Shown here: piece after piece, positions 6,555-25,841 of the stretch
Position numbering within the stretch: position 1 is the first letter of the stretch
Layout of the letters: every line of letters starts with the position of its first letter
Made by a program: the position numbers and the translations under genes
Notes under the pieces: generated by a model
What the model saw: only the letters and a program-made list of their open reading frames with translations
Told to the model about the DNA's origin: nothing
Databases searched by the model: none
Assembly (NCBI GenBank): GCA_905178155.1
Contig: CAJINV010000005.1
Location: 9,217,604 to 9,243,444 of the forward strand
Source: Amoebophrya sp. A120
Taxonomy: Eukaryota > Protista > Dinoflagellata
Length of the DNA: 25,841 bases
Direction of reading: 5' to 3'

Positions 6555-9500
6555 ATGCCACCTTCGAAGAAGCAAAACGTGAATTCTGGCGAGGCCAAGA
6601 AGCCCAACGCCAAGGCCAAACCGAAGGCAAAACCGAAGGCGAAGCCCAAAGCAAAACCGAAAGCAAAACCCAAGGCAAAGCCCAAAGCGGAACCAAAGGC
6701 GAAGCCGCAAGTGGAGTTGGGAGCCAAACCCGAGGCAAAACCGAAAGCAGAGCCGAAGGCAAGAGGGCGGCCGAAAGGCAAGGGCGCTGCGAAGCCGAAG
6801 GTAGCACCGGTGAAGAAGCAGGAGGGGGCAAAGAAACACCAGCAGGAAACGACTTCTCCTAAAATCGGTAAGGAAGTAGTTGTAGAGCAGGCGGCGGGAG
6901 GGCCAGCGGCTTCCTCTTCTTCTTCTTGTTCTGCTTCTGCGGCCGCATCCGCATCGGCAAAACCCGCGAAGGAAGAGAAATTTGTGCAAGGAACTAGCAC
7001 GACTCTCAGCACGACCAGCCCAATCGTTAACCTTGCTCCGGGGGCGAAACTAGCGGAGAAAAATAAAGTTCATTTCAATACAACCAGCTCCAGCTCCAGT
7101 CCGCCTGCTCACGTAGTTGTACCTCCTGTAGCAGGGAACAACAAAGAAGCTGAGGGCAGCACCAGTACGAAAGTTATTTCTAGCACTATAATTACTGACG
7201 CGCAGGGCAGACTGAAGAGACTTGAGATTTTTTTTGATCCAGTGGCAAAGAAGCAGAGGGTTGTGCAGCACTTTATTGAAGACACTCCTCCTGCAGAAGA
7301 AGTTGCTCCGGAGAAGGTGGCGTCGTCGAAGAAGGCAGGTGCTTTGGAGACTACCTCGAAAAGTGGTAGTGCCGCCGTTGCCTCTGTGCCAGTGCCAGAG
7401 GAGAAGAAATTTGACAACACGAAAACAAGTTCCGGTCCTGTACCTCCTGCACTTGCGCCACTGAGTACTTATTCTAGAAAGGAGATCACGAGGACTGCTG
7501 TTGACACTAGTACCTCCAGCACCGTCGCAGCTGGTATTGCTCCGTCGAAGAAAAAGAAGACAGGTGAAGAAGAGACTACTAGTACCTCAAACAGCGTTCC
7601 TCTTGTAGCTGTGCAAAATAAACTGAAAAAGCAGAAACTTGATACAACAGAGTTGTTGTCCACCTGTTCTACCACTGGTCATCTCGCAGGAGCAGTCGGA
7701 GGTGCAGCTTCTGCGCAAAAGGACAAGCAAATCGACACGTTGGTAGAAAAGAGTTGTTCCGGTGTTAATACCGCAGGTTCTACTTTGTCTGGAGCGAAGA
7801 ATAAACCTTCTGCGACTTCGATCTTATCTCAGAGTAAGAACGTGGACGTCAAGCAGGAGAAGATCGAGAGCAAAACTGGTGGCTCCACCGAACCTGTCCC
7901 TGCTGTTGCCTCACCAAAGGAGGAGCGCGTTGATATAAAAATTACCACGACTGCTGCTGAAGATGAAGACGTGCCAGCAGCTGCGGTGGTGAAAGTTGAC
8001 GTTGCCACTACAACTTCCAGCAAAGACGCGCCTGCTGCTCTGCCGGTGGAACAAAAGAAAGTTGCCGTTGCCAGCACTCCTTCCAGCGAAGACGCGTCTG
8101 CTGCTGCGCTGCCGAAGCCAGACGAGAAAGTTGCCGTTGCCAGCACTCCTTCCAGCGGAGACGCACGCGAAGGGCTGCCGAGGCCAGACGATAAAGTTGA
8201 CGTTGCCAGCACTCCTTCTAGCGGAGAGGCACGCGAAGGGCTGCCGAAGCAAGACGAGAGCGCCGAGATTGTCAGCACTCCTTCTGGTGAAGAAGCGCCA
8301 GCAACTGGGTCGGAGAAAAAAGACGAGAAAGTTGACATTTCCACTAATTCTGACGAAGACGCGCCTGCAGCTACTTCGCCGGTGGAAAAAGACGTGAAAG
8401 TTGACATTGGCACCACTTCTAGCGAAGACCCGCCTGCTGCGCTGCCGAATCAAGAGGAGAAGGAGGTTGACGGCGCCAATATTTCTTCTACAGGAGACGC
8501 GCCAGCAGCTACGTTGGTGTTGACACAAGACGAAAAAGTTGACATTGCCACTACTTCTAGCGAAGACGCACCAATAGCAGCTCTTTCGGTGAAACAAAGC
8601 GAGAAACAAGTTGAGGTCTTGCCCACTTCTAGCGAAGACGCGCCAGCAGCTCTTTCGGTGAAACACGAGGGGCAGAAAGTTGACGTTGCTACTACTTCTA
8701 GCGAAGACGTGCCAGCGGCAGCTCTTTCGGTGAAGCACGGCGATAAAGTTGACGCTCTTCCGACTTCGAGTGACCACGCATCAGCAGCTCCAGCGGAAAA
8801 AGAAGAGAAGCGTGAGGACGATTCCACTCCTTCTAGCGAAGAACACGCAGCACCTGCTGCAGCTCTGCTGGTGAAGCAAGAGAAAGTCGACTCCACCCCC
8901 TGCCCGACGGCTAGCGAAGACGCACCAGCAAGAGCTGCTGTAGTACCGGAGAACAAACACGACGAAAGAATTGACATTACCTCCGGGACCACTTCTGGGG
9001 AAGACGGATCTACTGCTGTTCTGCCGAATCAAGTAGACGGGAAAGTTGACATAATTACTAAAAATTATTCGAGCGGGGAACACGAAGAACACACGCCAGC
9101 TGCTTCAGCGGTCGTGGAGGAATATAAGGAAGTTGACATTACCACGACGGTGGATAGTGGAGACGCGCCAGTACTACCAGCTCCATCAGAAAATAAAGAG
9201 CTCGAAGATCTTCATAAAGCTGACAGCGCGAATATTCTTGCCAGCGAACAAGAGAACGGTCCATCTGCATTTGCTCCAGGTCTTCGGGAGAAACAAAACG
9301 ACGAGGGCACTGACGTCATTATCGCCACTTCATCTTCCAGTGGGGCTGGTGACGCAGTAGACGCAGTTGTTCCTTTGCCAAAAGAAGACGGCAAAGAAAT
9401 TGACAAACCTTCGACGACGTCGCCGCCCCTGACCCCAGTCTCTACAACTCCATCCACCAGTTCCCCCGCAGCAGTGGCGGGAACAAAAGAAAATAAAGAT

Positions 9501-12500
9501 AATCCAGAACAAGAAACACAAGCAGGCGTGAAAAACAGCTTTTCAGCTATACCGGACATCGACAAGAACAATCTTATCAGCGACAAGCAACTGACGGCGA
9601 TCCGGCTGAGACACAAAAAGATGGCGGAGGCCATGGAGAAGCTGTTGAAGTTGCAGGAAGACTACAATAAAAAGAACCGGCTCCGGGTTCTCATCCTCGG
9701 CGGCTCGACCTTCGTTGGCAGAACGTTGGTCCGGAACATCTTGAAAGAAGTCCATCATTATCAACTGCAACTATGTCTGGGTCCTCTGGAAACTTGTGCT
9801 GCGGGGAAGGGAATACTTAGTGAAAGCACTGTAATGCGCTGCCGAGCATGACAAGTTTTGCTGTGGTTCTGAGTTGCGTACTCTGCATGAGAAACTGCGC
9901 TTTTGTATGACAGGCAAGAGGAGCTCTTCGCGGCCACGCAATACAGAGTTCAGAGTCATGCCCGACTAGCATGACAAATCTCGCAATCTCCCAGACCCAG
10001 ACATGCTTGCAGTGCATAATCATTTGGACTTGGCGATTCTGAATCGCGGCCGGAAGTATTGGGATGGCGACTGGCAGGGCGCATTTCCGCCGACGAAGGA
10101 GAACATTCATGAAACAATATCGTAAGGAAAAATCCCCCCTCCCCATATCGAAAAGGCATCCTTTTGAAAATTTGTGATGCTGATTTGCGGCCACAAATCA
10201 GGTCTGTCTTGCAAGAGAGCAAAGCCCGAGCTTCCTCCGCTTTACGCCGGCGATTTGTAATGCTGCTGCGCTAACAGGGCAGCCGTCTGCCTCTGCCATG
10301 CTGAGCGCCCACTTCCAGCCAGCCCCTTCCAGGCTTTGCATCTGCCTGCAGTCCTCTAGGGCAATGCAGAGCTGATTTGCGTACACAAATTCCGCAACAC
10401 AGATTGCCATTTTGATATGGGGAGCGGGAATTCTTTCTTTTGATAAACAAACACGCTGAGGATCTTCCCCGGGGATCGGCGGAAGATGAAAGGGAAGCCT
10501 TTTCAGGACATCATCGCCAAACTTACGATCGAAGATAAAACCCGCTTTTATTACGATGAGGTGCTGGACTACATCGCAAAAACTCATGGGGCGGGAGATG
10601 AAAATGGAAATGACAATGGAAATCAAAATCCCTCGTCATCTATCAAATGCAAAAGTGTCTGGGTCTGGAAACTTGTGATGCTAAAAGTGAATGGTAGACG
10701 GACTGCAATACGCGGTATGCATGACAAATTTTCCGGCTCCCATGTCTTACGTATTCCGCATAGCAAACTGCGTTTTTGCATGACAGGTAAGAGGGCCTTT
10801 TCGTGCCTATGCAATACAGATTCTCAAGTCATGCCAGACAAGCATGACAAACTTGCATTCTTCCAGACCCAGACATTTTTACAGTTGATATCATCCAGTT
10901 GTGCGGATCATAATGGGAAAAAGACCACCAACATGATCTCGTCAACCAATCCATCTGATCCATCTGATCATGGGAAAATGACTAGTGCAGCTGCTTCTAG
11001 TTCATCATCATCATCATCAGCAGGTGCTCCTGCTCCTCCGCAGGACAGCATCAACAAGAAAAAGCCGTTTTGGGACGTGATTGTGGATTTCTGTTGTTTC
11101 CAAGAGTCAGAATTTCAAGACGTCATGAAGGGGTTGTACTTGGCCGGGAAATTGGTTTGTGACGAGAGGTGGAGCCTAGAAAAAGAGAAAAGGGAAAACC
11201 ACAGAGTTCACCCCCAGGTGGTGTGGGATCACGCGATATGGATTGCAAAAGTGTCTGGGTCTGGAAGATTGCAACTTGTCATGCTAAATCCGATTCGTGC
11301 AGAAATCTGTGTTGCATGAGTGCCAAAACCTTTCCACTTTCGACCAAGTTGGGAGGGAGTTTCTCATGCAGGATAGGCATGAAAGAGACCTCAGAGACTC
11401 TGTCATGCTAGGTCCCGCATTCCAGAGCTCAAAGGTCATGACAAACCTGCATGACAAGTTCACACTCTTCCAGACCTAGACATTTTTGCATTTCATACGC
11501 GAAACAAGCCAACGTCGTTTCCGACAACTTTCCCCCGGAAGCCTTCGTCAGTTATGCAAGAAAAAAACTATGTAAGTGTAAATCTGTGATGCAAAAAATG
11601 CAAAACAGTTACACTTGTCATGCTGAGTGTGCGTAATAGGCCACTTTCCTACGTATTTGCACGTACTAGCTGCGCATGACAGGTTTTTCCTGTAATGCAA
11701 AGCGAATTTGTGATGCTGCTCATTCTACAAGGTTACACTTACACAGTTTTTTTCCTGGATATCAGTCATTACATCTTCATTTCCACGGATTCCGTGTATG
11801 AGGTGTGCGGTCTCGAAAAGTGCGCAAAGGAAAGAATCGCGATCGAACGGCTCTTATGAACTGCAAAAGTATCGTAGTGCTAGTAGTAATGGCAATACAA
11901 ATTAGCTCAGCATGACAAATGGAATTTGTCATGCTGTTTTGATGCCTTGGGATAAAGATTTGTAAATGCATGACTGCGATTAGGATTACTACGAGTGCGA
12001 TGCTTTTGCAGGTCATAGCTTTTACCCAAGAAGGACGTGGAGAATTATTACAAGTGGAAATTTTCGGATGCGAAGCTACTGCATAGTATCCTGAGTAAAA
12101 ACGTACCCACACCAGAGTTGTAATGCAGATTTGCAAAGACAGGAAGACTTGTAATGCGCATCCCCATGAGAGCCATTCCCAGTCGTGTTTTGGAATTTGT
12201 GATGCTGTGAACAGGATGAGCAGATGAATCTGTGACGCGGCTGCACTTGCTAACCTGCACTACACTGCATAGCGCAACTTGTCATGCGTGACTCACAAAA
12301 CTCCTAGGTTTGTGTTGCAAAATCCTCATCCTGACTCTGGTGTGGGTACGTTTTTACTCAGGATAAGGACTACGACTACTTCAACATCTGGGGCGGGTAA
12401 GAGCGACAGCAAGCAGAGCCTTGGCGGAAAAGCAGAAGTGGAGCACGGTAGTTCAAGTTCAACAACATCAGTTATGGATTGTAAAAATGTCTGAATCTGG

Positions 12501-15500
12501 AAGGACGCGAACTTGTCATGCTAAGTCTGGATAGTGCATAAATTTGTGTTGCATGATTGCCAATAAAAAGTGTCCACTTTTGAACAAGTTTAGAGGCAGT
12601 TTGTCATGCAGGATAGACATGATAGAGACTTTGAAGAATCTTTCATGCTAGGTCCTGCATTGCAGACCTCATGGGGCATGGAGAATATGCATGACAAGTT
12701 TGCAATCTTGCAGAGCCAGACATTTTTACATTTGATATCAGTAGCGAAAATATTAGATCCAGACGCGAGAAAAACGGCGATTTATGATCTTCCAGAAATG
12801 GGTATCAAATGTAAAAATGTCTGGGTCTGGAAGAATTCATGTTTGTCATGCTTGTCTGGCATGACTCTTCAATCTGTCATGCACGTTACGCAAGAGCTCC
12901 GCTTTTCTGTGATGCAGAAGCGCAGTTTGTCATGCAGAATAGGCAACACCTAGGAGCTCAGAAAGTTGTCATGCTGAGCCAGCATTTGTAACCTCATCAC
13001 GAGACGCTACCCAGCATCACAAGTTCCCAGACCCAGACATTTTTACATTTGATAATGGGCTCTATCAAGGAAATGGACGGGCGGCGGCCCTCTATGCATT
13101 GCAGATGTGTCTGGGTCTGGAAAGAATGGGATTTGTGATGCTAGCTGTCGATCACACAGAAATCTGTATTGCATGAGAGGCAACAGCCCCTCAGATTGTT
13201 GCCACTCAAAGAGGGCATTTCTCATGCAGAATAGGCATGAGCAAACCTTTCCGAAAGCTGTGATGCTACAGAATGCATCACAGGCATCAGAGGCCATGTA
13301 CAATTTGCATGACAAACTCTTCCAGACCCAGACATATTTGCATTTGATACCCTCCACCATGTTCCAACAGTACACTGCGCAGCTGCGGCAGAATCGCATT
13401 TTGGGGGCGCACAAGCAGGAGCTGAAGGATGGCTGGCGGCAGAGCTGTAGGGCGATGAAAATTGCGGATAGGTTGGAGGACAAGGAGGGAAAATTCTTGA
13501 AAGAAGAATTAGAATTCGAAGCGAAGACCGCAAGACTGAATGAACGACAGCAGGACATTGGATACGCGATGCCGTTGATACAAGACCCGGAGGTGGCGAA
13601 AATATCAACTGCAAAAATGTCTGGGTCTGGAAGATTGCCAGGTTTGTCATGCATATTTTGAATGATCCATGATGTCTGTGATGCATGCGCTAGCGTCACA
13701 GATTTTTCGAGGGCTTTGTGATGCCTCTATCACATGAGAAACATCCTCTCCGCGTAGCACAAAGTGGAGTCCTCTTGCTGGTTATGCAACACAAATCTTT
13801 TTAGAATCCAGAGACAGCATCACAAGTTCAGAAACTTCCAGACCCAGACATATTTGCATTTCATAGAAAAGGTTGGAAAGCAAGTGGAACGACATGGACG
13901 ATATGCATAGTACAAATTACACGTCCGGGTCGTGGTCTCCCGGATTTCTGATGCAAGAGTTGGAGCACAACAAGTAGAGCTGTGATGCACGAATAGGAGT
14001 GCAGGTGCACAGCGTTTTTGTCGTGCCGCTGAGCAGTGGTATAGTTTGTAATGCTGCGCGCGAATGAGAATTTGCAAGAGAACAAAACGGCCTTGCAAAT
14101 AAACTTGTCATGCTGTTATGCCATGTACAGGTTGCTTCACTCGTCTGCAATGCAAGCATCAGCAACACAGACTTGCTCCAGAGGGCCCAGACATTCAATT
14201 TGCAGTGCATAACCAACTACGGACACAAGAAACTCCGAGTCGAGGAAGCGATGGTGAAGTTGACGCTTAAGGGAAACGCATGCTCTGCTTCCTCCCTATC
14301 CTGTGCAAAAGTATCGTACTAGTATGAATTGCATTACAAATTAGCCCAGCATTACAAATTGAATTTGTGATGCTGATTTACCTTGAGAAGGAGATTTGTA
14401 ATGCATACAGGCAATTACTACGAGTGCGATGCTTTTGCATTTGATACTTTCATCAGCCTCAGGACAAAAGCGTCAATTTTGACATGAAGCTGAACAAGAA
14501 CGACGAAACCTACTTCTGGACGGCGTTGCGCGTCCCGGATATACTAGGTCCGTACGACGACACCAACCGGCTGTTTAAGTACTGGCTGGCTTTTTTCGTG
14601 TATCGCTCGAAAAAAGTGTTTCACTGTAAGGAAGGATTGTGCATCAAGTTCTGCATCACAAGTTCGTTACACATGACAAAGAAAATTTTCCATGCGACCC
14701 TCCTAAGGGAAAACACGGCTGAAAATGAAAATCCATTGTCTTGTATGTGTAGCAAGACAAAAGCTTCTGTGTTTCATTTTCTGCATTACAAGTTTTGTTT
14801 ACAGTGAAGCAGTTTTTTCTTGCGATATCGCGGTGGAGGACATTCAGTTTAACAAGGCGGAGAAAGAGGATCCCGTGGCGGGTATGCATTGCAAAAGGGT
14901 CGCAGGCTAGTGGAAGTTGCATGACAAATTTTGACAAGGAGAGAATCGCAATTATTGTAATGCTGAATAAGGTGCACAGGACGAGGTTTGTAATGCTGTG
15001 CTGCAGTGGTTCCTTCAAGTGCGAAGATCCTTTTGCAGAGCATAGCCGTGGTGTTTTCCGAGGACATGGCGAAATTCATTCAGGATTTAGTCATCGATGT
15101 CCGCTTCCGCAACATGCCCCGCGATTTCGTGCCCGGGGGGACGGTCGTGAAGGTTGGCGCCTGCGGCTGGAAGCAGGAGTTGCAGCGCTTTTGGACGAAG
15201 GGCGACAGCAGAGTGGACAAACCTTGGACCGCTGGGTGCGGACTCGGTGCGTTAAATTTCGGGTGCGAGGAACAGGTTCCGTTGGAGCAACACGTGCGGC
15301 TGTTTCTATTACAATGAAAAATGCCCCCACCCCGGAATTCGTGCAAGTTTCTCATGCATAAGGTTTTCAAATGAAAATCTTTTTATCTATGCATGAAAGG
15401 ACTCCGAGTCTTTCTGGTGCAGAACCTAGACTACGCAAGCTATCTTTTGCATAACAGATCCGGCTGCTGTTGGGCTCCTGTGCAACACAAATTTGAACTA

Positions 15501-17451
15501 TTGAGCATTGGAAATTTGTGATGCTGACATATGCAAGACCGAGAATGGTTCCATTGGAAAGGCGGGTTGCAAGACAAATGCTGCCAAGTTCTGGGGTGGG
15601 GGCATTTTTCACTGTAATAGTTTCGGGAGATCGTTTTGAACGATGGTTGTGAAAGAAGTTTTGCCTGTTTCCAGGGACGAAGAGAAGCAGAGGCACCCGC
15701 CGAGCTCACGGGTGTTGACACAACAGACCAAGTGCACCAGTTGGAAAAACAAATTTTGCCTGCTGGTTCTTCTGAAAGCAGTCCGGGCTCTTCTCACTCC
15801 TCTGCTGCGGAACAAAATGTTGTGTTGCAGAAACGACAGAAAACCACCACAGATGTTGAGGCGAACAAGAACCAGGAGCGGAAAACTCACGACGAGAAAC
15901 CGGGAGGTAGTAGTGGTACAACTATTAGAGCTCCTCCTGAAGTTGTAGCAGAGAGCAGCAGCACGCATCATCCTCTCGACGAGAAGATGAAAGAAGGTGA
16001 AAATAAAGACGTCGCCGGGCCGCGGGGCGGGTTTACTCCGGATAACAGAGTTAGGTTCCAACCAGCGCATGATCCTTGCCTCGAGAAGATAGAGAAAATA
16101 AAAGCAGCAAGAAAGAAAGAAGCCGCGCAGCGAGAAATCGAGGAGAAGAGAGTCATATTGAACAAAAACTACCTCCTATGGAGAGAAAAAAGTTTGTCAC
16201 AGTCACTAACTTGCAGGTTTTGCATTACAAATTTTCTCAGCATCACAAACTTTCCTTGTATTGCAGAAACACTAGGGAAATGCCTAATGAAGTATGGCTG
16301 TGATGCATTTTTACGCATGACAAACAATTTTGTATTGCAAGAATGCGCATGAGTGATCGTGACGAATTTTTTTTCTTTGATGCCTCCCTTCTGTTTCCCG
16401 CCGGACGAAGCCGCTGGATTTCGAGAAACTTTCTCAGTACTTGCACGAAGTGTCCTTTTCCGGAAAAGTGCACCAGTTGCCGATCAGTTCCGACGTCGAC
16501 GAGAAGACTTCCAGCTTGGAACACGTTTACCGAAAATGCCACGAGTTCTATCCTGAGGAAAAACGTGGTGTCGCCCACAGGTGGGAAATCTGCTAGAAAA
16601 ATTAGCCAGCTTTGCTTGTTTCGCATGACAAACTTGGGCTCGCAATGTAGTCGCATGACAAAAAATTTGGGCTCGCAGCATCACAGATCTCGGGCGCAGT
16701 GCTGATCCCTTCGGGTATCGCAAATCTCAAATCACCACTAGAAAATGCTTCTCATGGGTCTTTGCATAAGCATGCAGATGTGCATTACAACTCTGGGGAG
16801 GTGGGGCTTTTTTCCTCCGGATAAGTTTTACAAGAAAGTGGTCGACCGGGCGATTGTCGAAGTTGAGGATTACAGAAATGGAAAAATATGCGTTGCAAAA
16901 GTACTATCATACTCGTAGTTTTTGATTGCAATCGTGCATGACAAACCTTCATCCTAAGCTAAATCAGCATGACAAAAAAATTCCGTTTTGTCATGCTGAG
17001 AATTAGTTTGTGATGCAATTTCTCCTACGTACGATAGTACTTTTGCAAAAATGTTGCATAAAAAAGACGCGACAGTAAGAACAGTGACTTCATCGGCGAT
17101 TTCTACGAAAGCTTCGTAGATGCGCGGAAAGGCCTGCCCTTCCGTGTGCGGGAGGAGTTCGAAAGGTTAGCGTTTGAGGATGGAGGAGGGACAAAGGATG
17201 ATAATGATGATCATCTTGCGAGAGAAAAACGACCGGGGGACGAGAAGGAAAAACCGGGGGACGAAAAGGAAAAACCGGCGGGGAAGAAGGATGTGGTGAT
17301 GGCAGATGCTCTTGCGGGTGGATGTGGAAAGGAGGATTTTGAGAAAACCAAAGCAAAGGTGTTGAAGCTGTATAAGATGATGGAAGAGCTTGAGAATGAG
17401 TCAAGCAGCGATTCTAACTCAAGTCACGACAGCGAATCATCTTCGGGATGA
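6555..17451 (+). CDS. Gene 2: ~2065-aa protein with a PKAK-repeat basic N-terminus, an acidic repeat region and a C-terminal extended/atypical SDR (NAD-dependent epimerase/dehydratase, CSP41-like) domain; 20 exons, 19 introners
   Basis: Span 10897 nt minus 4699 nt (19 elements plus 5 nt each) = 6198 nt, open to TGA at 17449-17451. SDR motifs appear in the correct order across exons: VLILGGSTFVG, ILNRG, GDR, WDVIVDF, HYIFISTDSVY, YGHKKLRVEE (YxxxK), LRVPDILGPYDDTNR, VFSEDMA, ALNFGCEE, YLPSV..PLD. Confidence 0.88.
6601..6810 (+). repeat. Coding 12-nt repeat encoding (KPKA)n, histone H1-tail-like
   Basis: Translation AKAKPKAKPKAKPKAKPKAKPKAKPKAEPKAKP, with third-position codon variation between units. 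Confidence 0.9.
7929..9200 (+). repeat. About 18 degenerate coding repeats of ~22-29 aa, consensus KVD[V/I]ATTSSEDAPAAAL
   Basis: Visible in the translation and in the DNA (AAAGTTGAC..ACTTCTAGCGAAGACGCGCC). Confidence 0.9.
9759..10018. mobile_element. Introner family A2 (260 bp)
   Basis: DR ATCAT/ATCAT; removal joins EVHH to LDLAILNRG; inverted relative to 21427-21689. Confidence 0.93.
10118..10445. mobile_element. Introner family D (328 bp)
   Basis: TIR TATCGTAAGGAAAAATCCCCCCTCCCCATATC, imperfect; DR AACAA/AACAA. Confidence 0.92.
10641..10890. mobile_element. Introner family A2 (250 bp)
   Basis: DR TCATC/TCATC; family A TIR; inverted relative to 12803-13054. Confidence 0.92.
11237..11497. 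mobile_element. Introner family A1 (261 bp)
   Basis: DR CGCGA/CGCGA; family A TIR. Confidence 0.93.
11553..11761. mobile_element. Introner family B (209 bp)
   Basis: DR TCAGT/TCAGT; removal joins AFVS to HYIFISTDSVY. Confidence 0.93.
11855..12017. mobile_element. Introner family E (163 bp)
   Basis: TIR TATGAACTGCAAAAGTATCG; DR GCTCT/GCTTT; related to 14297-14446. Confidence 0.9.
12087..12365. mobile_element. Introner family F (279 bp)
   Basis: Perfect 32-bp TIR TATCCTGAGTAAAAACGTACCCACACCAGAGT; flanks CATAG/AGGAC give no 5-nt DR; frame restored by removing element +5 (or +2) nt. Confidence 0.9.
12473..12737. mobile_element. Introner family A1 (265 bp)
   Basis: DR TCAGT/TCAGT; family A TIR. 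Confidence 0.92.
12803..13054. mobile_element. Introner family A2, inverted (252 bp)
   Basis: DR ATGGG/ATGGG; perfect TIR TATCAAATGTAAAAATGTCTGGGTCTGG. Confidence 0.93.
13093..13349. mobile_element. Introner family A1-like (257 bp)
   Basis: DR CCCTC/CCCTC; family A TIR. Confidence 0.92.
13603..13865. mobile_element. Introner family A1, inverted (263 bp)
   Basis: DR GAAAA/GAAAA; reverse complement aligns by eye to 12473-12737. Confidence 0.92.
13902..14211. mobile_element. Degenerate introner with A-like TIR (310 bp)
   Basis: TATGCA...TGCATA ends; DR decayed (GACGA/ACCAA); removal +5 nt brings the YGHKK motif into frame. Confidence 0.8.
14297..14446. mobile_element. Introner family E (150 bp)
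   Basis: TIR core TGCAAAAGTATCGTACT; DR CTCCC/CTTTC. Confidence 0.88.
14601..14827. mobile_element. Introner family B' (227 bp)
   Basis: TIR TATCGC..GAAAAAA.TG.TTCACTGTAA; DR TCGTG/TCGCG; inverted relative to 24156-24364. Confidence 0.9.
14883..15044. mobile_element. Introner with E-like TIR (162 bp)
   Basis: TATGCATTGCAAAAGG / CCTTTTGCAGAGCATA; DR GCGGG/GCCGT. Confidence 0.86.
15307..15619. mobile_element. Introner with F-like TIR (313 bp)
   Basis: TIR TATTACA[A/G]TGAAAAATGCCCCCACCCC; DR GTTTC/GTTTC. Confidence 0.92.
16177..16382. mobile_element. Introner (206 bp) ending in ATG
   Basis: TIR core AGAAAAAAGTTTGTCAC..TCACT; DR CCTCC/CCTCC; removal gives NYLPSVSRR. Confidence 0.9.
16549..16823. 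mobile_element. Introner family F (275 bp)
   Basis: TATCC.GAGGAAAAA ends; DR AGTTC/AGTTT; internally similar to 18428-18721; has a small internal tandem duplication. Confidence 0.9.
16887..17060. mobile_element. Introner family E, inverted (174 bp)
   Basis: TIR core TTGCAAAAGTACTATC; DR AAAAA/AAAAA. Confidence 0.9.
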
Positions 17452-18184
17452 TTATACATGAGATTTGCTGATGAAGAAAACTAGGTAGAGCAGGACTACG
17501 TAGTGCGTAACAGATTGCCCGACTCTGAAGAAGACTTTGCTTTTACATTCTCTTACTATCTTTGCAAGGAAAGGTGTGCTTTAGGTAGACGACCAAATGT
17601 CTTCATCCATGATGTGAACAACACAAAATCTTGTTTTGTGAGGTCTCTCTGAATGCAGAAGCGAAATAAAAAACCCATTACCCATAAAAAATCGCCGACC
17701 TGCCGGTCTACTTACTTACAGGCACAGTAGATGCAGCAGCACGACAAGAGCGAAAAAATTTGCTGTTGCATTGCATTTTTTCGCTAGTTCTCTTCATGTT
17801 CGTTAGCTCTACTTCTACGCTATGATCGTGTCGTGTCCATATAATTTCTGTCGAAAAAACGAGCGATTGCTATGCCAAAATGTGGTGGTCGAGAGGGGGA
17901 GAGCGTCTTCGTATTTAAGTATGTGGTTCGCGTCCGTGTCGCGCTCGTCGTGCTCGTTGAGAGTAGGCCTGAGTCTTAGAAGATAGAACTCCGGACGAGA
18001 AATCTGATTTCGGGCCTCGAGGACCTGGGGCTCAACTTTCATCGCCTCACGTTGGCACAACAAAATGCTTCTTCTAGCTGCGCAGGTGAACTAGTAGTAC
18101 AGCAAGGCTCGGCTGTACGTAGTTTTGAAGTAGATTCTGAAACAAATATATAAAACTGTGAATTGTCAAACTATCAACAGCAAA

Positions 18185-21100
18185 ATGCTCTATTTCCGCC
18201 GATCAGGAGCAACGACCATCTTCGCGGCCCTCGCCGCAACCTCAACGACCCTGGTCGTCCAGGCCCGGCGGAAGCCCGGACTCGGCGCGTCGCACCAGAA
18301 GAAGTTGCAGACCTTCGTTACCATCGACGGTAACGCGGATCAAGAATACCACGATGATGACGCGCACCTCTACCTTGCAGACGAACACGCGGACGAACAT
18401 CACGAGGAGCATGATGACCACACGTCTTATTCTGAGTAAAAACGTCCCCACGACCACAGACATAGTCCAGATGGGAACTTGGCAACACAAATCAAAACAA
18501 GGTTTGGCTGTTGCGCATGACAAGTTTGGGCTCGCAGTGTAATCCTTTACAGCTGGTGCAGCCCGAAGAGAAATCGACACTGTCTTCCTCATTCTCGCAT
18601 GACAAACTCGTCCCCGTCGATGAAATTAGAAAATGCCTGTCATGTGGCTGCGCATGAGAAACTTTTTAGGCATGCAGATTTGCATGACAACTCTGGGGCA
18701 AAGACGTTTTTGCACAGGATACGTCTTTCATCGAAGTGAAGCGGCCGAAGAAGTTTAAGCAGAAACTGGATTCCGAGCTTATGACCCGCACAGACGTGGT
18801 TACAATCTCAGCTGTTACAATAGAATCTGGAAATCTGTGATGCAAGAACTGCATGATCTAGCCTACTCCCATAGGATTGCGCATGACAAGTTTCGGAGTC
18901 CCAAATCCGCCTGAAATCCGGCAAAATTTGTATTACGAAAAGCTCAATTCGCTCTGCGTTCCTCATGCTCTTCATGCAATACAAATTCCAGAACCAGATT
19001 CTATTGTAACGTTTGAGATTGTAACTTTTGAGCAGGCCATAGAGCTGAACGACGAGGCGTCCGCCTTCCTCGACGTGAACAATCTGAAGGATGACGAGGG
19101 GACAAAAACTACGGGGAAGGGTGGCGCGGAGATCACCGGCATGGAACTGGATATCCAAGAAAAAAACTGTGTAAGTGTAAATTTGTGTTGCAGAACATGC
19201 AACAGAGCTACACCTGTCATGCCAGACAGCCATAAAGTCCTCTTTTCATTTGTGTTTTCCCTTACAAGCCACGCATGACAGGTTTTCTCTGCCATGTAGA
19301 GCAAATTTGTGATGCTGTTCCTCAAAGAAAGTTACACTTACACACTTTTTTTCTTGGATACTGGAGAGAAAGAAGAAGAAGGAAACCGTCAAAACGGAGA
19401 ATGTCCAGATCACATCGCAGAAAAACTATCCACTGCAAATATGTCTGGATTTGTGATGCGAGATGCGAAGGACAGCGAGATCTGTAATGCTTGAATACGA
19501 TTATGGTCTTTTTTTCGTCGTTCTCGACGGGAATGAATCGATCCGCAAGAAGTTGGGGAAACACAACTTCTCATGCTGTGATGCAAGTATCACCAACACA
19601 AGTTGTTTCCAGACACCCAGATGACATAGTTGCATTTGATAAAAACGTAAAAACGTCGACTGCCGCGCCCGTCACGAAAGCTGCTACGACCACCAAGAAA
19701 ACTACGACCACGACTACCACAACGGACATCAACAATGGACTGGTAAGATGATAGAGTTTTTTTGTCATGCGCAGAACGCATTGGACATGCATTTCTGTCA
19801 TGCATGAATTGCAACGACAATTAATGCGCGCTTCAATCAAAATTCAGGTCAACCCGCGGTTGCGCGAGAAGTACCACCCGGACCACATGACCGGGCACAA
19901 AGCCTCTTACGGGGTCTTCGCCATCATCGGGGGCGTCATCCTCGGTTTCGGGCTTTTTGTCACGGTTTTCTGCATATGCATTGCAAAAATGTCTGGGTCT
20001 GGAAGGATGGAAGTTGTGACGCGTGCGGTGGATCACACAAAAATCGCTCTTGCGTGATAGCCAAAAGTTGCCCTTTTCTGACCACCATGAGAGGGAGTTT
20101 CTCATGCAGGGCAGGCATGGTAGAGACCTCGCAGAATCTGTCATGCTAGGTCCTGCATTCCAGACGAGACCTCTTGGGCATAGAAACCCAGCATGGTAAC
20201 TTTGTATTCTTCCAGACCCAGACATTTTTGCAATGCATACTGCATCTACTACGGACCCAAGTCGAAATCGAAGGAGAGCGACATTTCACGGACGCTGAAC
20301 AAGGACTACGACAAGGCCGCGGGAAAGTCACCCGAGTCGAAGCGCGGCAAGAAGGGGGAGTCAAGTGTGGGTGGAGAGGGGACTTCGTACGGGAGCTATG
20401 AGAGTGCACAAGTAACCCCCCTCACCGCTCCCCTCAGTTGTATTGTGCAGAACACCAAATACGTGTTTAGCTGACGAATTCTGGCGACCCCCCGGGCGCC
20501 GTCATTAGGCTGCTTGGGGGGGTTTGGGGGGGCAAGATTCAGCGTAGCCGGCTAGGGTTCGGCTAGGGTTCGGCCAGGGTTCGGCCAGGGTTTTCGCCCA
20601 GGGTTTTCGCCCAGGGTTTTCGCCCAGGGTTTTCGCCCAGGGTGCGCCCAGGGTTCGCCCAGGGTTCGCCCGGGGTTCGCCCGGGGTTCGCCCAGGGTTC
20701 GCCCAGGGTTCGCCCAGGGTTCGCCCAGGGTTCGCCCAGGGTTCGCCCAGGGTTCGCCCAGGGTATTCTGTGTGTTGTTTTATGTTCGTTCCTGTAAAAT
20801 AAATGTTGGGGACAGAGGGGGGCGGTGCACTCTCATAGGAGCTCGGAGTACTACAGCAGTTCGCAGTACACCAGTGGATCCTCATATGCAAGAAAAAACC
20901 ACTCCCGCGTGTGAGTCTGTACCTGTAGTGAGTAAGTGTGTAGACGTATGCTGGCCAGGAGCCACGAAGCCCTCTTTTCATAAGGTGGCGTCTTAAGTGC
21001 TAGCAGTGCATGACAGCCTTGCTCTGTCATGCGAACAAGATTTGATGTCCTGCTTTGCTGTCACTACTTCAAGAAAGCTGAAGCTACTTCTCACAGCACT

Positions 21101-22352
21101 AAAGCAGCTTTTTTCCTGGATGCCTCTCGCGTGATGTCCGGCGGCAGTTCCATGCAATCCGGCGGCAGTTTATCCCATGAAGAAGTGTGTCTGTGTGAAC
21201 GGAGTTTATCATGCAATAACATGCAAAAAGGCTGGCAGCGGCAGCGCTGAAATTTGTATTGCGTAGCATGCTTTAGCTTTCACTTTCTAGGGAAAATCTG
21301 GAACAATGCCTGGGTGCAAGCCGTGAAATAAATCGTTTACGCATAAAACATTTTTGTGGTTCTTGATAAACTTCCTTCCCGCCGAGCAGCGCAACTGCTG
21401 CTTCTTCTGCAAGCCGTGCCACCAAGTATCAACTGCAAACATGTCTGGGTCTGGAAGATTGCAAGATTTGTCATGCTAGTCTGGCATGACTCTGCACTCT
21501 GTATTGCGTGGCCATGAACAGCCTCTCGAGCCTGTCATGCAAGAACAACGTAGTTTCTCATGCGGAATGCGCAGCACAGAAGCACGAAAAAAACTTATTA
21601 TGCCTAGCTGCGCGTTACAGTTCCCTTATTGTTATTGTTCACTGACTTGCATCACAAGTTTCCAGACCCGGACATATTTGCATTTGATACCAAGAAGTCC
21701 AACGCAATGACGAAGCCGAAGTCGGTTACTTCCTCCGGAGCGAAGCTATGCATGGCAAGAGTTTGATCGCACTTGTGTGAATTGCATCACAGATTTTTGA
21801 TTTTCCAGAATCAACAAAAAATTGGAGTTTGTGATGCTGCTCTAGAAATAAAATAAAAGATAGATCTGTCATGCGATTTGCCACGCGGGGTTGTGCGATA
21901 CTTTTCCATAGCATAACAATCGGGCTACTCGATGACGTCCTCCAAGTACGAGGAAGACGGCTACGGGGAAGAGGAAGAGGACGACTACGAAGACGAAACT
22001 GCGTATGGGAGTGTCAGGATCGAAATCGTCAAAGGTGAAATTGTTTGCCATGCATAAAATGCAACGCAGAAATTGCCTCTATTGCAGAGGACGCAAGGGA
22101 GGCAGATTGTAGTGCTGGTAGGGGTCGAGAAATGGGCTGCTGATTAGCAACACAGAGGGGAGTCCCTTTGCCCTGAACAGCATGACAAACTGGCTTCCTG
22201 TACGGACAAAATTTGTCATGCACCGACTAGAAGCTGTGGATCCAATTGGTATCGATTTTATGCATTGCAAGTTACTTTAACTCCGTCGATTTCAATCCTG
22301 GTACTCCGATACCGCGTTCCATTCCGGGGGTGGGAAAAAATCTAGAATGTAA
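18185..22352 (+). CDS. Gene 3: ~381-aa predicted type I membrane protein (signal peptide, His/Asp-rich patch, Thr-rich stalk, one TM helix, Ser/Tyr-rich and acidic cytoplasmic tail); 13 exons
   Basis: Span 4168 nt minus 11 introners (+5 nt each) and one 105-nt GT-AG intron (3022 nt in total) = 1146 nt, open to TAA at 22350-22352. N-terminus MLYFRRSGATTIFAALAATSTTLVVQA; TM YGVFAIIGGVILGFGLFVTVFCIYY. Confidence 0.82.
18428..18721. mobile_element. Introner family F (294 bp)
   Basis: DR CGTCT/CGTCT; TIR TAT.CTG.G.AAAAACGTC. Confidence 0.92.
18780..19041. mobile_element. Introner family C (262 bp)
   Basis: DR GAGCT/GAGCT; similar to 3241-3501. Confidence 0.92.
19152..19360. mobile_element. Introner family B (209 bp), inverted relative to 2476-2687
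   Basis: DR CTGGA/CTGGA; near-perfect 29-bp TIR. Confidence 0.93.
19427..19641. mobile_element. Introner with A-like TIR (215 bp)
   Basis: DR AAAAC/AAAAC; TATCCACTGCAAATATGTC / GACATAGTTGCATTTGATA. Confidence 0.9.
19743..19847 (+). other. Canonical GT-AG intron (105 nt) in gene 3
   Basis: CTG|GTAAGA...ATTCAG|GTC; removes an in-frame stop and joins DINNGL to VNPRLREK. Confidence 0.8.
19975..20239. mobile_element. Introner family A1 (265 bp)
   Basis: Perfect 31-bp TIR; DR CTGCA/CTGCA. Confidence 0.94.
20397..20837. mobile_element. Introner (441 bp) containing a minisatellite
   Basis: Perfect 13-bp TIR TATGAGAGTGCAC; DR GGAGC/GGAGC; removal joins TSYGS to SEYYSSSQY. Confidence 0.88.
20550..20764. 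repeat. 11/13-bp minisatellite GCCCAGGGTT(TT)C with a telomere-like AGGGTT core
   Basis: About 19 tandem units directly visible. Confidence 0.95.
20885..21122. mobile_element. Introner with B-like TIR (238 bp) ending in ATG
   Basis: TATGCAAGAAAAAA / TTTTTTCCTGGATG; DR CCTCA/CCTCT. Confidence 0.82.
21171..21368. mobile_element. Degenerate introner (198 bp)
   Basis: TATC...GATA ends with weak TIR; DR CAGTT/AACTT; frame restored (GGS to SFPPSS). Confidence 0.72.
21427..21689. mobile_element. Introner family A2, inverted (263 bp)
   Basis: DR CCAAG/CCAAG; family A TIR. Confidence 0.93.
21747..21915. mobile_element. Introner with E-like TIR (169 bp)
   Basis: TATGCATGGCAAGAGT..ATCGCAC / GTGCGATACTTTTCCATAGCATA; DR lost (GAAGC/ACAAT); frame restored with +5 nt. 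Confidence 0.78.
22004..22311. mobile_element. Introner, singleton family (308 bp)
   Basis: TIR TAT.GGAGT..CAGGAT.GAAATCG; DR CTGCG/CCGCG. Confidence 0.88.
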
Positions 22353-22399
22353 GACTCGTGACGTGGATTCAAATTTGGACGATGTTTCTCGCTAGGGTA

Positions 22400-23600
22400 C
22401 TAAGCAAAGAGTGCTTGAGTTCCTTTGCCGCGATGTATCATCATCCTGTCACTATCTATGAGTGTGAACAATTCGGAACTTCTTCCATAGTTTCAAGAGC
22501 GCGATTGTCAAGTCTACTAGCGTGTTGTTTGACAGTTTCAGAAGTAAAAAAACCCTGTTGACACTATACTGCTGCAAAAATTGATTGTGAAAAAAAATGT
22601 ACCGACCCTTTATCTGAGTTTTAATTGTCTTGACACTTTGACTAAGTACCAGTGCCTCGATTGCAGCTAAGATTTCAGTATCACAACTACGACTACCCAG
22701 TATTGACTCATTATTGTTTACGATCTTTACGACCTCTGCTGGGCCGCCAGATTTTATACCCGAAGAAACGTTAGCTTTCCTGTGCACCTCCACCTTTGAA
22801 ATTGAAACGATAGCAAAAAGCTTGAGAAATTATTGTAAAATTTGAGAACAAAAATGCGAAGATGAATCTTCAAACCTTTGTACAATACTTGAAACACTAC
22901 GAGAAATGAAAAAATACACACCACCAGCAGGAGCGTTGTCGTTCTTGAGACGGCTTCGCAGGAGGGCCACGTCACTGTAAGAGCCAAGAATTACCGGGAG
23001 CAGAAAGAACATGATTGGAAGTACGCAGGCAGTATTAGCTCAACAGATCTGTTTAGTACTTTGTAGCTGCTGGCTGCGAACAGAGACTTCGTAGTTCGTG
23101 GGGTGCGTCGTGGTATCGTGAATGATGAACAGGAACTCGTACATTCGATCCGGTTGCGTCGTGTCGCGAGGGGAGAGAGACCACGAGCAAGAGTAATTTT
23201 TACTAAGCAGACCGCTTTCTCGTCGCTTTCTTTAAGAAACAGAAGTGGTTATCGCATCGACCGTTCTCGTCGTACTGAAGATTCGCTACCCGTTTTCGCC
23301 CTCGTCATGATTGTTCGCATACTTCTTCGTGGAAGCTCTCTGGTGTTGCTTTCGCATTAAGACCGTACTGTCGCACAGAAGTAGTTGCACTGCTAAGTTT
23401 AGATTCACGATCTGAAGGTGCGGATGGACAGCCAAGAAGACGGCTGAACAAAAAAAGTTCCACGAACACTTATTGCAAATCCATACCAAGTGCAAGTAGT
23501 TTCCTAGTAGTTGCGACAGCTTCGAAATTAAGAGGCCTTTCGAAGGTATAAAGAAACGAACGACTGCTCTTCTACAACTGTACGGTATAATACGAAGTAG
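22400..23600 (-). pseudogene. Possible decayed Ty1/copia RT C-terminus and RNase H
   Basis: Broken minus-strand fragments SQLLGNYLHLVW, LGSYSDVALL..GGVYFF and SRSCDTEILAA resemble copia motifs in the right order; recognised by eye only. Confidence 0.4.
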
Positions 23601-23644
23601 CATCACCGCCAGAACTACTAGTACGTCTCTGTGAGGACGAGAAA

Positions 23645-24937
23645 ATGGAGCAACGCGAGCGAATCACCTCGAGCAGCTCTACTTCCCGGCTCTACGCCCG
23701 GAATCATCACAGCGCGAATTCCTACCAGCTGGAGCAGGAGCTGCAGGATGTCAACGAGATGGATTTTTTGCCGTCTGTGAACGCCTCCGACGGGACGACG
23801 AGTCACTTCAACTATCACACATATCCTTTGCAAAGTATGTAAGTTGCAGTTTGTTGCATGACAGATTAATTATCCTATTTCAAACTGCATGACAAACCCC
23901 ACTTTACCTTTTGAAAAAAGTTGTGTTGCAACTCATACTACTGTGATTACGCCTTTGCAATGCATAATCCCGCAACATCCCAGCCGACTCCCTCCACCTC
24001 TTCAACGTCCTCGAAAATAATCGAGAAGATGAACTCGTCAACATCGCCCAGCAGTAGAGCCGCGTCGAAAAAGAACTGCTGCTTCCTTCTCTTCCTCGCA
24101 GCAGCGGTGTTCTCGATTTTTTTCTTCATCCACGAATTGCACCTCCGATTCATCCTATCGCAAGAGAAAACTGTTTCACTGTGCACTTGTGATGCAGAAA
24201 AAGCATCACTGAAGTGTTTGTCTTGCTGCACATGCAAGACAGTGGACTTTTAGCTGTGTTTTCCCTTCAGAATCTCGCATGGCAAATTTTCTTTGTGATG
24301 TGGAACAAACTTGTGATGCAAAACTTGCAAAATCCTTACAGTAAAACACTTTTTTCGTACGATACATCCACAACTGGATCTTGCCGAACCTCCTGCACAA
24401 CAGTAACCTTTCATCTACATCGCACTATGAAACGATTGATGGAGAACAGCATGACAAACTGAGGAAAATCAGCGACGAACTTCTGATGCAGGGCGCGGGG
24501 CAACACTTCAACTTCTCCACCGGAATTATAAACGAGGTTTTTGACGAGGAAAACGCTTTTTCGCTGCTGTCGACGGATACCGTCATGAAAACCGGGTTCA
24601 TGCAGGGTACGCTACACAAATTTCAGGATTGTAGTCAGACCATGAGCGAATGTCGTGGAGGTTTGTCATGCGAAAAGTGCATGAGGTGAAAGATTTGTAA
24701 TGCGAAGAGTGCATCAGCAACACATGTTTGACAGACCGAAATCTGTGTTGCATAAACGTGAATGAAGTAGCGGAGGAGAAGGTGCACGTGCGGAGCGACG
24801 ATGACGAGACCGACGATGCCGACGGTGGAGATGAGGAGCATGACGGTGGTGAAGAAGGAGATGAACATGAAGATGCCGATGCCGATGTAGCCCCACCCGC
24901 ACCTGCTAACGACACGCCGGGAAGCAAACGTAGTTGA
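23645..24937 (+). CDS. Gene 4: predicted type II membrane protein (one N-proximal TM helix, acidic stretch); 3' structure uncertain
   Basis: Exons 23645-23821, 23972-24155 and 24370-24606 join in frame after removing two introners; TM CCFLLFLAAAVFSIFFFI. A probable GT-AG intron from 24607 leads to an Asp/Glu-rich exon. The gene may continue past 24937. Confidence 0.62.
23822..23966. mobile_element. Introner with E-like TIR (145 bp)
   Basis: TATCCTTTGCAAAG / CTTTGCAATGCATA; DR decayed (ACACA/ATCCC); removal of 150 nt is in frame. Confidence 0.8.
24156..24364. mobile_element. Introner family B' (209 bp), inverted relative to 14601-14827
   Basis: DR CATCC/CATCC; reverse complement aligns end to end with 14601-14827. 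Confidence 0.93.
24607..24770 (+). other. Probable GT-AG intron in gene 4 (acceptor at 24770 or 24734)
   Basis: CAGG|GTACGC donor; both AG options are in frame with the downstream acidic exon. Confidence 0.5.
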
Positions 24938-25440
24938 GTTTTTTTTTTTTCCCACGTCTTCTGCATTACATATCCTGACAATGGGAAAATCAAAAACAAA
25001 ATTGAAATTTCAATTTGCAGCCAGTACCTACCATGAGCAGAAGAGAAGTGCTTTATTACGGTAGTATTAATTTAACTGCGTCATCCGATGCAAAAAATCT
25101 ACAACTACAGCCGCCCCAAGCGCAGCAGTGAAACCAGCGGACGATGCGGCGCATACGAAAATGGAGATGATAAATCGATTAACTTTGTGATGCCCCGTAG
25201 TTGCAGCCCGTTTGCTGGGAAGTACGATTGGAAACGCGCTTTTAGAGGGTTGTTTTTCTTGAACTCATGCCTGAAGATGAAGATACAGGGGCAGGAAGTG
25301 CTGGAAAATTGGCTTTGACTAGCTCCAACGACCTCCGTACGGGGGAAGAAAAATTTCGCGTACGGGGTAAGAATGTAGTGCTGTTTCGCTTGCGTACGGG
25401 GGAAGTACGCAGGAGCGTCTTCACGCAAATTTTTTCCCAG

Positions 25441-25841
25441 CCTGTTTGGCTTCTGTCCGGGGGCCAGTTTTGTTTGCTTGCGTTTTTGTCGCGCCACAAT
25501 ACATTTTCATTTGTCATGCGGATTTGCTGGAATCCGCACGAGACTACCTTGCGACGAGACAGAATCTCGGCAGCTTTTTTGCCGAAAACGACCCCCGGAC
25601 AGGGAGACAGACGCCGCTTGTCCGGGGGTGGACTCCCGCCCTGTTTGGCTTCTGTCCGGGGGTTGTCCGGGGGCCAGTTTTGTTTGCTTGCGTTTTTGTC
25701 GTGCGAAAAGACATTTGTCTTGCGGATCAGCTGCAATCCGCACGGGACTGCGTTTCGACAAAACAGAATGTCGGCAGCTTTTTTGCCGAAAACGACCCCC
25801 GGACAGGGAGACGGACGTCGCTTGTCCGGGGGTGGACTCCC
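25441..25841. repeat. ~200-bp tandem repeat, two copies visible, running off the window
   Basis: Units begin CCTGTTTGGCTTCTGTCCGGGGG at 25441 and 25640 and end GGGGGTGGACTCCC. Confidence 0.9.

Follow-up and report, generated by a model that had tools for sequence, protein, structure and literature searches.

Introners of Amoebophrya sp. A120 are removed in either orientation, each with exactly five extra nucleotides and in a fixed register

In the dinoflagellate Amoebophrya sp. A120, introners leave the transcript whichever way round they lie in their host gene, and each leaves as the element plus exactly 5 nucleotides (nt). The evidence comes from a 25,841-nt stretch of the A120 assembly (contig CAJINV010000005.1, positions 9,217,604 to 9,243,444; hereafter the window, in whose coordinates all positions are given) and from related loci recovered from metagenomes. 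The intron register is fixed as N-TAT...ATA-NNNN, with the cut falling 1 base before and 4 bases after the element at every joint that could be read. The elements, their repeats and a suspicion of unusual splicing are already published, whereas the splice code is newly defined here. About 30,000 A120 introns are of the introner kind, and the accessible text of Farhat 2021 states their removal as open (PMC7789003).

The elements and their ends

The window is A120 sequence: single-exon searches each returned one protein, all from Amoebophrya sp. A120, and three annotated proteins (P0001, P0002 and P0003) match it. It holds 36 elements of 145–441 nt, which start with TAT (one with TAC) and end with ATA (two with ATG), have inverted ends of 15–50 nt and lie between the copies of a 5-nt direct repeat, exact in 22/36. 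A pattern scan of metagenome contigs yielded 143 loci; the 76 with wide flanks were merged to 65 stretches totalling 441 kb, in which 335 elements were called, against 3 calls in 107 kb of shuffled control sequence. The target-site duplication (TSD) of these locus elements is exact over 5 bp in 217 and over 6 bp in 1. The loci represent a relative or other strain (best element identities 75–96%) and were found via the end pattern of one family, which is consequently over-represented among them. Position profiles resolve the inverted repeat into TAT, then 7 variable nt, then AAA, as published for A120 introners, and the elements are those introners (Farhat 2021, PMC7789003). With terminal inverted repeats (TIRs), a TSD of fixed length, a short non-coding body and occurrence in both orientations, they also display the traits of MITEs (miniature transposable elements with inverted repeats) and other TIR transposons.

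Removal from transcripts

The transcript evidence centers on gene 2 of the window, whose features are listed below by position. Elements are referred to by their first base, F and R denote the two orientations, and k is the number of bases of the left TSD copy retained in the exon. Each element from 10641 to 14883 has a joint in X1–X4, contigs from four runs of one sample, whose status as RNA is the tool's guess.

9621–17451, + strand: gene 2 as annotated (P0001, 1043 amino acids), with 19 introners; frame open upstream to 6555
9759–10018: introner of the ~260-nt family, orientation F, TSD ATCAT, reverse complement of 21427; contig arithmetic and P0001
10118–10445: introner of the ~322-nt family, TSD AACAA; contig arithmetic and P0001
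10641–10890: introner, orientation F, TSD TCATC, reverse complement of 12803; joint 10635>10891
11237–11497: introner, orientation R, TSD CGCGA
11553–11761: introner of the ~210-nt family, TSD TCAGT
11855–12017: introner of the ~150-nt family, imperfect TSD GCTCT/GCTTT, k at least 4, reverse complement of 16887
12087–12365: introner of the ~279-nt family, TSD CATAG/AGGAC (1/5), k 3–4, reverse complement of 16549 and 18428
12473–12737: introner, orientation R, TSD TCAGT, reverse complement of 13603
12803–13054: introner, orientation R, TSD ATGGG, reverse complement of 10641
13093–13349: introner, orientation R, TSD CCCTC
13603–13865: introner, orientation F, TSD GAAAA
13902–14211: introner, decayed TSD GACGA/ACCAA (2/5), k 4–5
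14297–14446: introner, imperfect TSD CTCCC/CTTTC, k 4–5
14601–14827: introner, imperfect TSD TCGTG/TCGCG, k 4–5, reverse complement of 24156
14883–15044: introner, imperfect TSD GCGGG/GCCGT, k 3–4
15307–15619, 16177–16382 (ends ATG) and 16549–16823: introners; contig piece boundaries or arithmetic and P0001
16887–17060: introner, reverse complement of 11855, with a 6-nt insertion in the 3′ arm; contig arithmetic and P0001

In X1–X4, 13 of 13 elements in 10500–15250 are skipped, and every joint leaves out exactly 5 nt beyond the element. Individual X2 and X3 records bridge 10641 and 13603, in one orientation, as well as 11237, 12473, 12803 and 13093, in the other. Piece arithmetic in X1 covers 9759 and 10118 together with 10641 (284 = 299 − 15), and its piece boundaries and arithmetic account for 15307, 16177, 16549 and 16887 (219 = 234 − 15 for the last three). 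Contig depth is flat, and X1–X4 show no cover in bins inside 12473 (R), 13603 (F) and 14601, which is not an efficiency measure. X5 behaves as DNA, running through the element borders; the raw RNA runs X9 and X10 gave only 6 and 3 reads matching the window. For element 13902–14211, with its decayed TSD and an indel in one arm, unspliced contigs are listed in X1 at a depth of 2–2.8, compared with 27.3.

Elsewhere in the window, removal is supported by the annotated proteins for the three elements of gene 1 and for ten of gene 3 (19152 and 21427 among them), and by the reading frame for 23822, 24156 and 24608. Excising each of the 19 elements of gene 2 with 5 extra nt gives a stop-free frame of 2070 codons, whereas excising the elements alone gives at most 1080. 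The same excision yields 584 codons in gene 1 (three elements) and 263 codons in the last gene of the window (23645–24937), versus 114–120 unspliced; all these frames are on the + strand, and excision of the elements alone does not restore them. Over 294 elements, excising 8 extra nt scores 168 and excising 5 scores 177, as expected from frame alone; the excess length of 5 comes from the TSDs and the joints.

The joined contigs could be thought to derive from the DNA of an element-free strain rather than from spliced RNA, given that the RNA status of X1–X4 is a guess and that a pre-insertion allele would likewise lack the element and one TSD copy. We regard this as very improbable and already largely refuted: X1–X4 list 0 other-letter differences over 10500–15250 at 99% likeness even though old elements with decayed TSDs are missing from them, the six informative joints all show one left-4/right-1 chimera, several bins between or outside genes that X5 covers at a depth of 33–82 are empty in X1, and the annotated protein has the same joints. 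Both orientations are thus removed, each as the element plus exactly 5 nt.

A fixed cut register

Perfect duplications hide the position of the cut, and imperfect ones expose it. The joints permit k of 4–7 at 11855, 3–4 at 12087, 4–5 at 13902, 14297 and 14601, and 3–4 at 14883. These six imperfect duplications intersect at k = 4 only, and only k = 4 fits all 13 joints. The annotated proteins agree: P0001 is the k = 4 translation, with 0 differences versus 2–5 at other k, a test that is not fully independent, as the annotation may come from similar transcripts; P0002 rules out k = 5 (583/583 residues match for k 0–4, with one difference at k = 5); and P0003 is without differences only for k 3–4. 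Since the joints at imperfect TSDs and the proteins give k = 4, the intron is N-TAT...ATA-NNNN. Elements 12087 (TSD 1/5) and 13902 (TSD 2/5) keep the same cut geometry although their duplications are nearly lost, which indicates that the signal lies elsewhere than in the direct repeat.

Published data anticipate this register in part. All 9 "predominant" A120 splice sites in Table S4 of Farhat 2021 start N-T, and its section 11 describes four repeated bases upstream of the 5′ end, both fitting k = 4; for A25, whose elements have TTA ends, every site in that table starts with TT; in the legend of Fig. 3 the intron border is variable or unknown, and the figures of that paper (Fig. 3, S19–S25) may show part of the register (PMC7789003, text available in part).

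The same families in both orientations

A preliminary description of the window, made from its sequence, had proposed that the same introner families occur in both orientations in genes on one strand, and named seven pairs of reverse complements. Their members outside gene 2 are as follows.

2476–2687: introner of the ~210-nt family in gene 1, TSD GGCAC, opposite in orientation to 11553 and 19152
19152–19360: introner in gene 3, TSD CTGGA, reverse complement of 2476; annotated protein
21427–21689: introner in the same gene as 19152 by the P0003 annotation, TSD CCAAG, reverse complement of 9759; annotated protein
24156–24364: introner, reverse complement of 14601; intron status by frame restoration only
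1–1796, + strand: 3′ part of a long intron in which the member named 1494 lies; P0002 links an exon outside the window to 1794; reverse-complement match to 10118

For each pair, 40 nt of inverted end were trimmed per side and the interiors aligned globally, and the reverse-complement score was compared with the forward score and with the best of 100 shuffles. The three scores, in that order, are:

10641/12803: 114, −7 and −1.5 (70% identity)
12473/13603: 136.5, 20.5 and −3.5
11855/16887: 70.5, 17.5 and 9
9759/21427: 170.5, −9.5 and −7
14601/24156: 154, −7.5 and 3.5
2476/19152: 95, 0.5 and −3
1494 (aligned as 1472–1792)/10118: 164.5, 54.5 and −8

All seven pairs align as reverse complements and not forward (68–74% identity), and all their hosts lie on the + strand, as the spliced + frames and the annotated proteins P0001, P0002 and P0003, which agree with them, attest. 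Six of the seven are pairs of introns. The remaining one involves 1494, which the preliminary description took for an element: its reverse-complement match to 10118 stands, but its left end lacks TAT, and it amounts to no more than the 3′ portion of an intron whose length exceeds 1.79 kb. The 5′ end of that intron lies outside the window, and its right end at 1792 (...GATA) is intact and belongs to the 10118 family. This intron, known by annotation, suggests that element ends still work when far apart. Satellite-like repeats of the TTTTGTGCAATGCAAAATCGA type fill it over 1–1792, up to the introner end.

The orientation count against host strand that the preliminary description had proposed was run on the window and the metagenome loci. 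The strand set comprised 328 elements (loci with TSD of at least 3/5, plus the window), 278 of which were stranded by a codon model. Strand calling by open reading frame length left 144/294 uncalled, and the codon model agreed with it in 133/134 shared calls; the model mis-scored 21427 (d = −6.3), which the annotation places on +, with two neighbouring elements then uncalled. Every large family occurs both ways relative to its host (50:60, 27:20, 21:8, 15:14 and 12:3), with nominal p of 0.024 and 0.035 for the skews 21:8 and 12:3, and the family graph has no inconsistent edge. The preliminary description had also considered that one orientation might stay unspliced, or that each might carry its own conventional donor and acceptor; both orientations are skipped in contigs, and intron positions +1 and −2/−1 are free.

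Orientation independence is explained by the symmetric ends and is, on its own, the expected outcome of inverted ends. Because these supply the same directional signals either way round, it cannot discriminate between mechanisms. The proposed step from two-way removal to a structure-guided or non-spliceosomal process therefore does not follow, and the cut itself is staggered (+1/−4) relative to the symmetric ends.

A one-sided constraint on symmetric ends

Positions +1 and −2/−1 of the intron are unconstrained. For a count of end variants, non-redundant short loci were added (133 stretches, 510 kb), the terminal trimer was left unscored and a TSD of at least 4/5 was demanded, giving 334 calls, 237 of them stranded, and 0 in 145 kb of shuffled sequence; the count leaves out 4 shifted calls with multiple differences. 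At TIR position 1, which is U+2 at the 5′ end and its mirror base at the other, the 5′ trimer has 0 variants against 10 (ATG 7, ATC 2, ATT 1) for the 3′ trimer. At position 2 the counts are 0 (5′) and 1 (3′). Position 3 varies 7 times in the 5′ trimer (TAC 6, TAA 1) and once in the 3′ trimer (GTA), where it corresponds to A−7. The Fisher test gives p = 2.5e-4 for this one-sidedness; the two ends do not differ at any other of the 22 positions, and the asymmetry holds at stricter strand margins. In a control A-tract, mutation shows no strand bias (A>G 29, T>C 28), and similarity among the 17 variant elements does not exceed 83%. An end that is symmetric as DNA is thus under a transcript-directional constraint at intron U+2 and A−7.

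Selection on RNA pairing would raise G-U above A-C in the arms. No such excess is seen (119:115 over 20 positions in 150 elements, and 27:19 in 30 window elements), and pairing selection is therefore unsupported. At position 3, a C-A mismatch occurs 6 times and a U-G wobble once, unlike the pairing prediction, and TIR position 4 (G/C) shows no covariation between arms (p = 0.25). An end-to-end stem is nevertheless predicted in most elements, with the terminal three pairs at a probability of at least 0.75 in 27/34 window elements, although the sense strand folds better in only 19/34. Removal with 5 extra nt persists in 16887, despite its 6-nt arm insertion, and in 16177, where the terminal pairing probability is 0.07.

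These results divide the earlier proposal that removal relies on symmetric features. The signals do sit in the TAT...ATA ends, but the ends are read directionally, as sequence; the one-sided constraint, the even G-U to A-C ratio and the missing covariation at position 4 speak against a structure-guided reading.

How the introners may be removed

By a modest balance of probability, we favor a host U2-type spliceosome, relaxed in its requirements, that reads the element ends as directional sequence signals. Branching at A−7, a candidate branch adenosine proposed from sequence, would carry perhaps half of that confidence. A DNA transposase would insert the element in either orientation, and in both cases its inverted end would present N-U-A-U, resembling a donor, at the 5′ end, together with a U-tract and A-U five bases upstream of the 3′ site (A−7 seven bases upstream). 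U+2 and A+3 would be the remains of a GU-R donor, and the distance from A−7 would set the 3′ site, much as happens where branch and acceptor are fused. The stem between the two ends would draw both sites together, replacing the undetected U1. The net effect would be that after insertion at any sequence, in either orientation, the original mRNA is restored.

Spliceosomes preserve U+2 as well as an invariant A close to the 3′ end, and a GT-AG intron (19743–19847) shares gene 3 with introners. A120 has nearly all spliceosomal proteins plus U2, U4, U5 and U6 according to the accessible text of Farhat 2021 (PMC7789003), and the available accounts of Fritillaria have its inverted-repeat introns depend on the U2 spliceosome (10.1101/2025.08.15.670264; PMC11282704).

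Several observations count against a spliceosome. Spliceosomes normally need G+1 and AG at −2/−1. Here, +1 is G in 85/278 introns (flank G 0.30), the last two bases are AG in 26/278, GT-AG occurs in 9/278, and only U+2 is fixed; copies with decayed TSDs show no drift toward G or AG, and a drift of the ends toward GT or AG was rejected on that ground. The surroundings of A−7 match a standard U2 branch helix poorly and, in most elements, are predicted to lie within the paired stem. The end asymmetry amounts to 19 one-sided variants, is post hoc and takes its strands from the codon model, with p = 0.07 for position 3 alone. Loci with a TSD of 0–2/5 keep the +5 frame in 3/9, several being apparently mis-paired, compared with 77/81 for perfect TSDs. 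Two looser calls have GAT...ATC ends (TSD 3/5) and one has a 3′ GTA. U1 small nuclear RNA is undetected in A120 in the accessible text (PMC7789003), and structurally similar Euglena introns leave as circles and are thought to be non-spliceosomal in the parts of the reports available (PMC12501133; PMC11282704).

The GAT...ATC calls (L056+L057+L058 2004–2127, in merged coordinates, and L060 945–1211) are either mis-calls or a variant end type; were GAT...ATC a genuine end type, the U+2 rule would break.

A less probable alternative, though one to be taken seriously, is a spliceosome-independent nuclease and ligase that would bind the terminal stem and U-A motifs, cut 1 nt upstream of the stem and 4 nt downstream of it, and join the exons. 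The freedom of +1 and −2/−1 is its best support. A fixed offset from an inverted motif also recalls the tested Euglena code N3CDG...CH'G N5-6 (PMC12501133; PMC12621601, seen in part), the three terminal pairs are mostly predicted to form, 7/10 of the position-1 variants retain a U-G wobble, and the failure to find U1 (PMC7789003, in the accessible text) fits as well. Set against this, neither a G-U excess nor covariation is seen, most variants at position 3 put a C-A mismatch into the 5′ arm, A−7 itself staying fixed, and the weak arms of 16887 and 16177 leave the excision and its 5 extra nt intact. The constrained bases moreover fall at the spliceosomal U+2 and branch A, although a sequence-specific nuclease could still yield such an asymmetry. 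We therefore consider the spliceosome likelier than a nuclease and ligase.

More tentatively, the introners may define a splicing route that needs neither terminal dinucleotides nor U1, reads U-A at +2/+3 and A-U at −7/−6, and by its fixed 1/4 stagger removes exactly one 5-bp target copy. In its boldest form this would be a non-spliceosomal nuclease–ligase system evolved independently of the euglenid one. If true, any insertion of the element would be silent, whatever the target sequence or the orientation.

An internal motif and the question of an end-binding protein

Inside the elements, the motif GCAWNACWR occurs 14.6 times per kb, versus 1.1 outside, an enrichment of ~13-fold. Its copies are spaced 31 bp apart in 122/529 gaps and 31–33 bp in 202; 31 bp is about three turns of DNA. 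There is no transcribed-strand bias (1.72 vs 1.88 per element). A copy lies 20–70 nt before the 3′ site in 149/278, and its mirror follows the 5′ site in 152/278, so that the motif is present both ways. As a branch point the motif was rejected, being without strand bias and at variable distance; the array looks like a DNA-binding array for a mobilizing enzyme.

Its density and spacing could also point to a protein, transposase-derived or of the host, that would recognize the ends or GCAWNACWR on DNA or nascent RNA and position the splicing machinery, leaving stem and terminal bases secondary. The two copies of the motif in the canonical intron 19743–19847 are in keeping with this. We nonetheless judge it improbable: the spacing would suit binding by a transposase just as well, the motif ignores the transcribed strand and lies 20–70 nt from the 3′ site in little more than half of the introns, and no such protein was identified. 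The canonical intron itself may have arisen by decay of an introner, or it and the introners may have a binding factor in common.

With respect to mobilization, no autonomous element with the same ends was found in the 441 kb, where one long pair of 972 nt has a longest frame of 86 amino acids, and viral contigs gave 0 matches to the element end pattern. An A120 TIR family with integrase-like homology is reported in the part of Gozashti 2025 available (PMC12130899; 19/58 A120 supplement rows).

Host genes and other features of the window

The remaining features of the window are:

1794–4297, + strand: gene 1, 3′ part (P0002, 1510 amino acids), hosting introners 2476–2687, 2746–3006 and 3241–3501
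18185–22060, + strand: gene 3 (P0003, 387 amino acids), from which the annotation excises ten introners (18428, 18780, 19152, 19427, 19975, 20397, 20885, 21171, 21427 and 21747) and which reads into 22004–22311
19743–19847, + strand: canonical GT-AG intron of gene 3
23645–24937, + strand: predicted gene with introners 23822–23966, 24156–24364 and 24608–24754; frame restoration only
24608–24754: introner starting TAC; frame restoration only

Within gene 3, the introner at 20397–20837 is enlarged by an internal 11-nt tandem repeat, GGTTCGCCCAG, and is still excised in the annotated protein. The P0003 annotation runs into a clear element at 22004–22311 (TSD 4/5), whose excision would change the C-terminus; the annotation there may be in error or may record retention. 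The stretch 6555–9620, upstream of where gene 2 is annotated to start and in frame with it, is an intron-free, low-complexity frame of ~1020 codons, where introners are absent and contig cover is short and low-depth only. Between genes 1 and 2, 4740–6010 is very GC-rich, with 0 Rfam matches and 0 called elements. At the window end, 25400–25841 carries a direct repeat of ~190 nt with a TTGTCATGC-like motif. An Rfam scan of the whole window gave 0 matches at the gathering score, group I/II introns and tRNA-like families included.

Relation to known systems and significance

The comparisons below draw on the parts of the cited reports that were available. Farhat 2021 describes introners of the same organism with an inverted repeat of TAT, 7 nt and AAA, short direct repeats and no fixed dinucleotides; its direct repeats are of 3–5 nt and it mentions orientation for genes only, whereas here the TSD is 5 bp and the register is fixed (PMC7789003). 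The method of Gozashti 2022 allowed opposite-orientation matches, on which the text seen does not report (PMC9860276), and Gozashti 2025 kept same-orientation similarity only (PMC12130899), whereas both orientations are here shown to be removed. In the Amoebophrya literature covered, subscription papers lying outside, we did not find two-way removal, a fixed register or a one-sided end constraint stated.

Among other eukaryotes, the nonconventional introns of Euglena share an inverted-motif code at fixed offsets, free terminal bases, direct repeats, a probable MITE origin and coexistence with GT-AG introns (PMC12501133; PMC11282704). Their code, however, reads N3CDG...CH'G N5-6, and the exon that follows begins with a purine, in contrast to N1 TAT...ATA N4 here, and they leave as circles, while the A120 elements form clear recent families (PMC12501133). 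The euglenid signature is not seen in our data, where the next exon starts with a purine in 144/237, near the flank frequency of 0.56, and hence without bias. In Fritillaria borealis, splice sites lie at the inverted ends of non-autonomous DNA transposons and an adapted U2 spliceosome acts on them; there AG-AC/AG-AT ends dominate and U1 is present, whereas in A120 the ends are free except for U+2 and U1 is undetected (10.1101/2025.08.15.670264; PMC11282704). The symmetric sister (stw)introns of Hypoxylon proliferate and have inverted ends of 45–55 nt, as here, but are canonical, lack a TSD and function as introns on the coding strand only, the opposite of the A120 case (PMC8469720). Giardia offers precedents for a branch A placed a short, constant distance from the 3′ site, in its fused branch/3′ splice site CT[A/G]ACACACAG, and for a relaxed first donor base (GTATGT/CTATGT); unlike A120, where A−7 is only a candidate, it retains the full branch consensus and AG (PMC10711314).

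With the register fixed, "no splicing signature" becomes a definite code, N-TAT...ATA-NNNN, which corrects annotated intron borders. It also yields a prediction at the level of single bases, namely that branching would occur at A−7 and that U+2 would be essential. The invasion of the genome would be explained by an element that is silent without requiring a particular target or orientation. Whether a spliceosome dispenses with G+1 and AG−1 or a second enzyme system is at work, either would inform how far the chemistry of splicing can relax.

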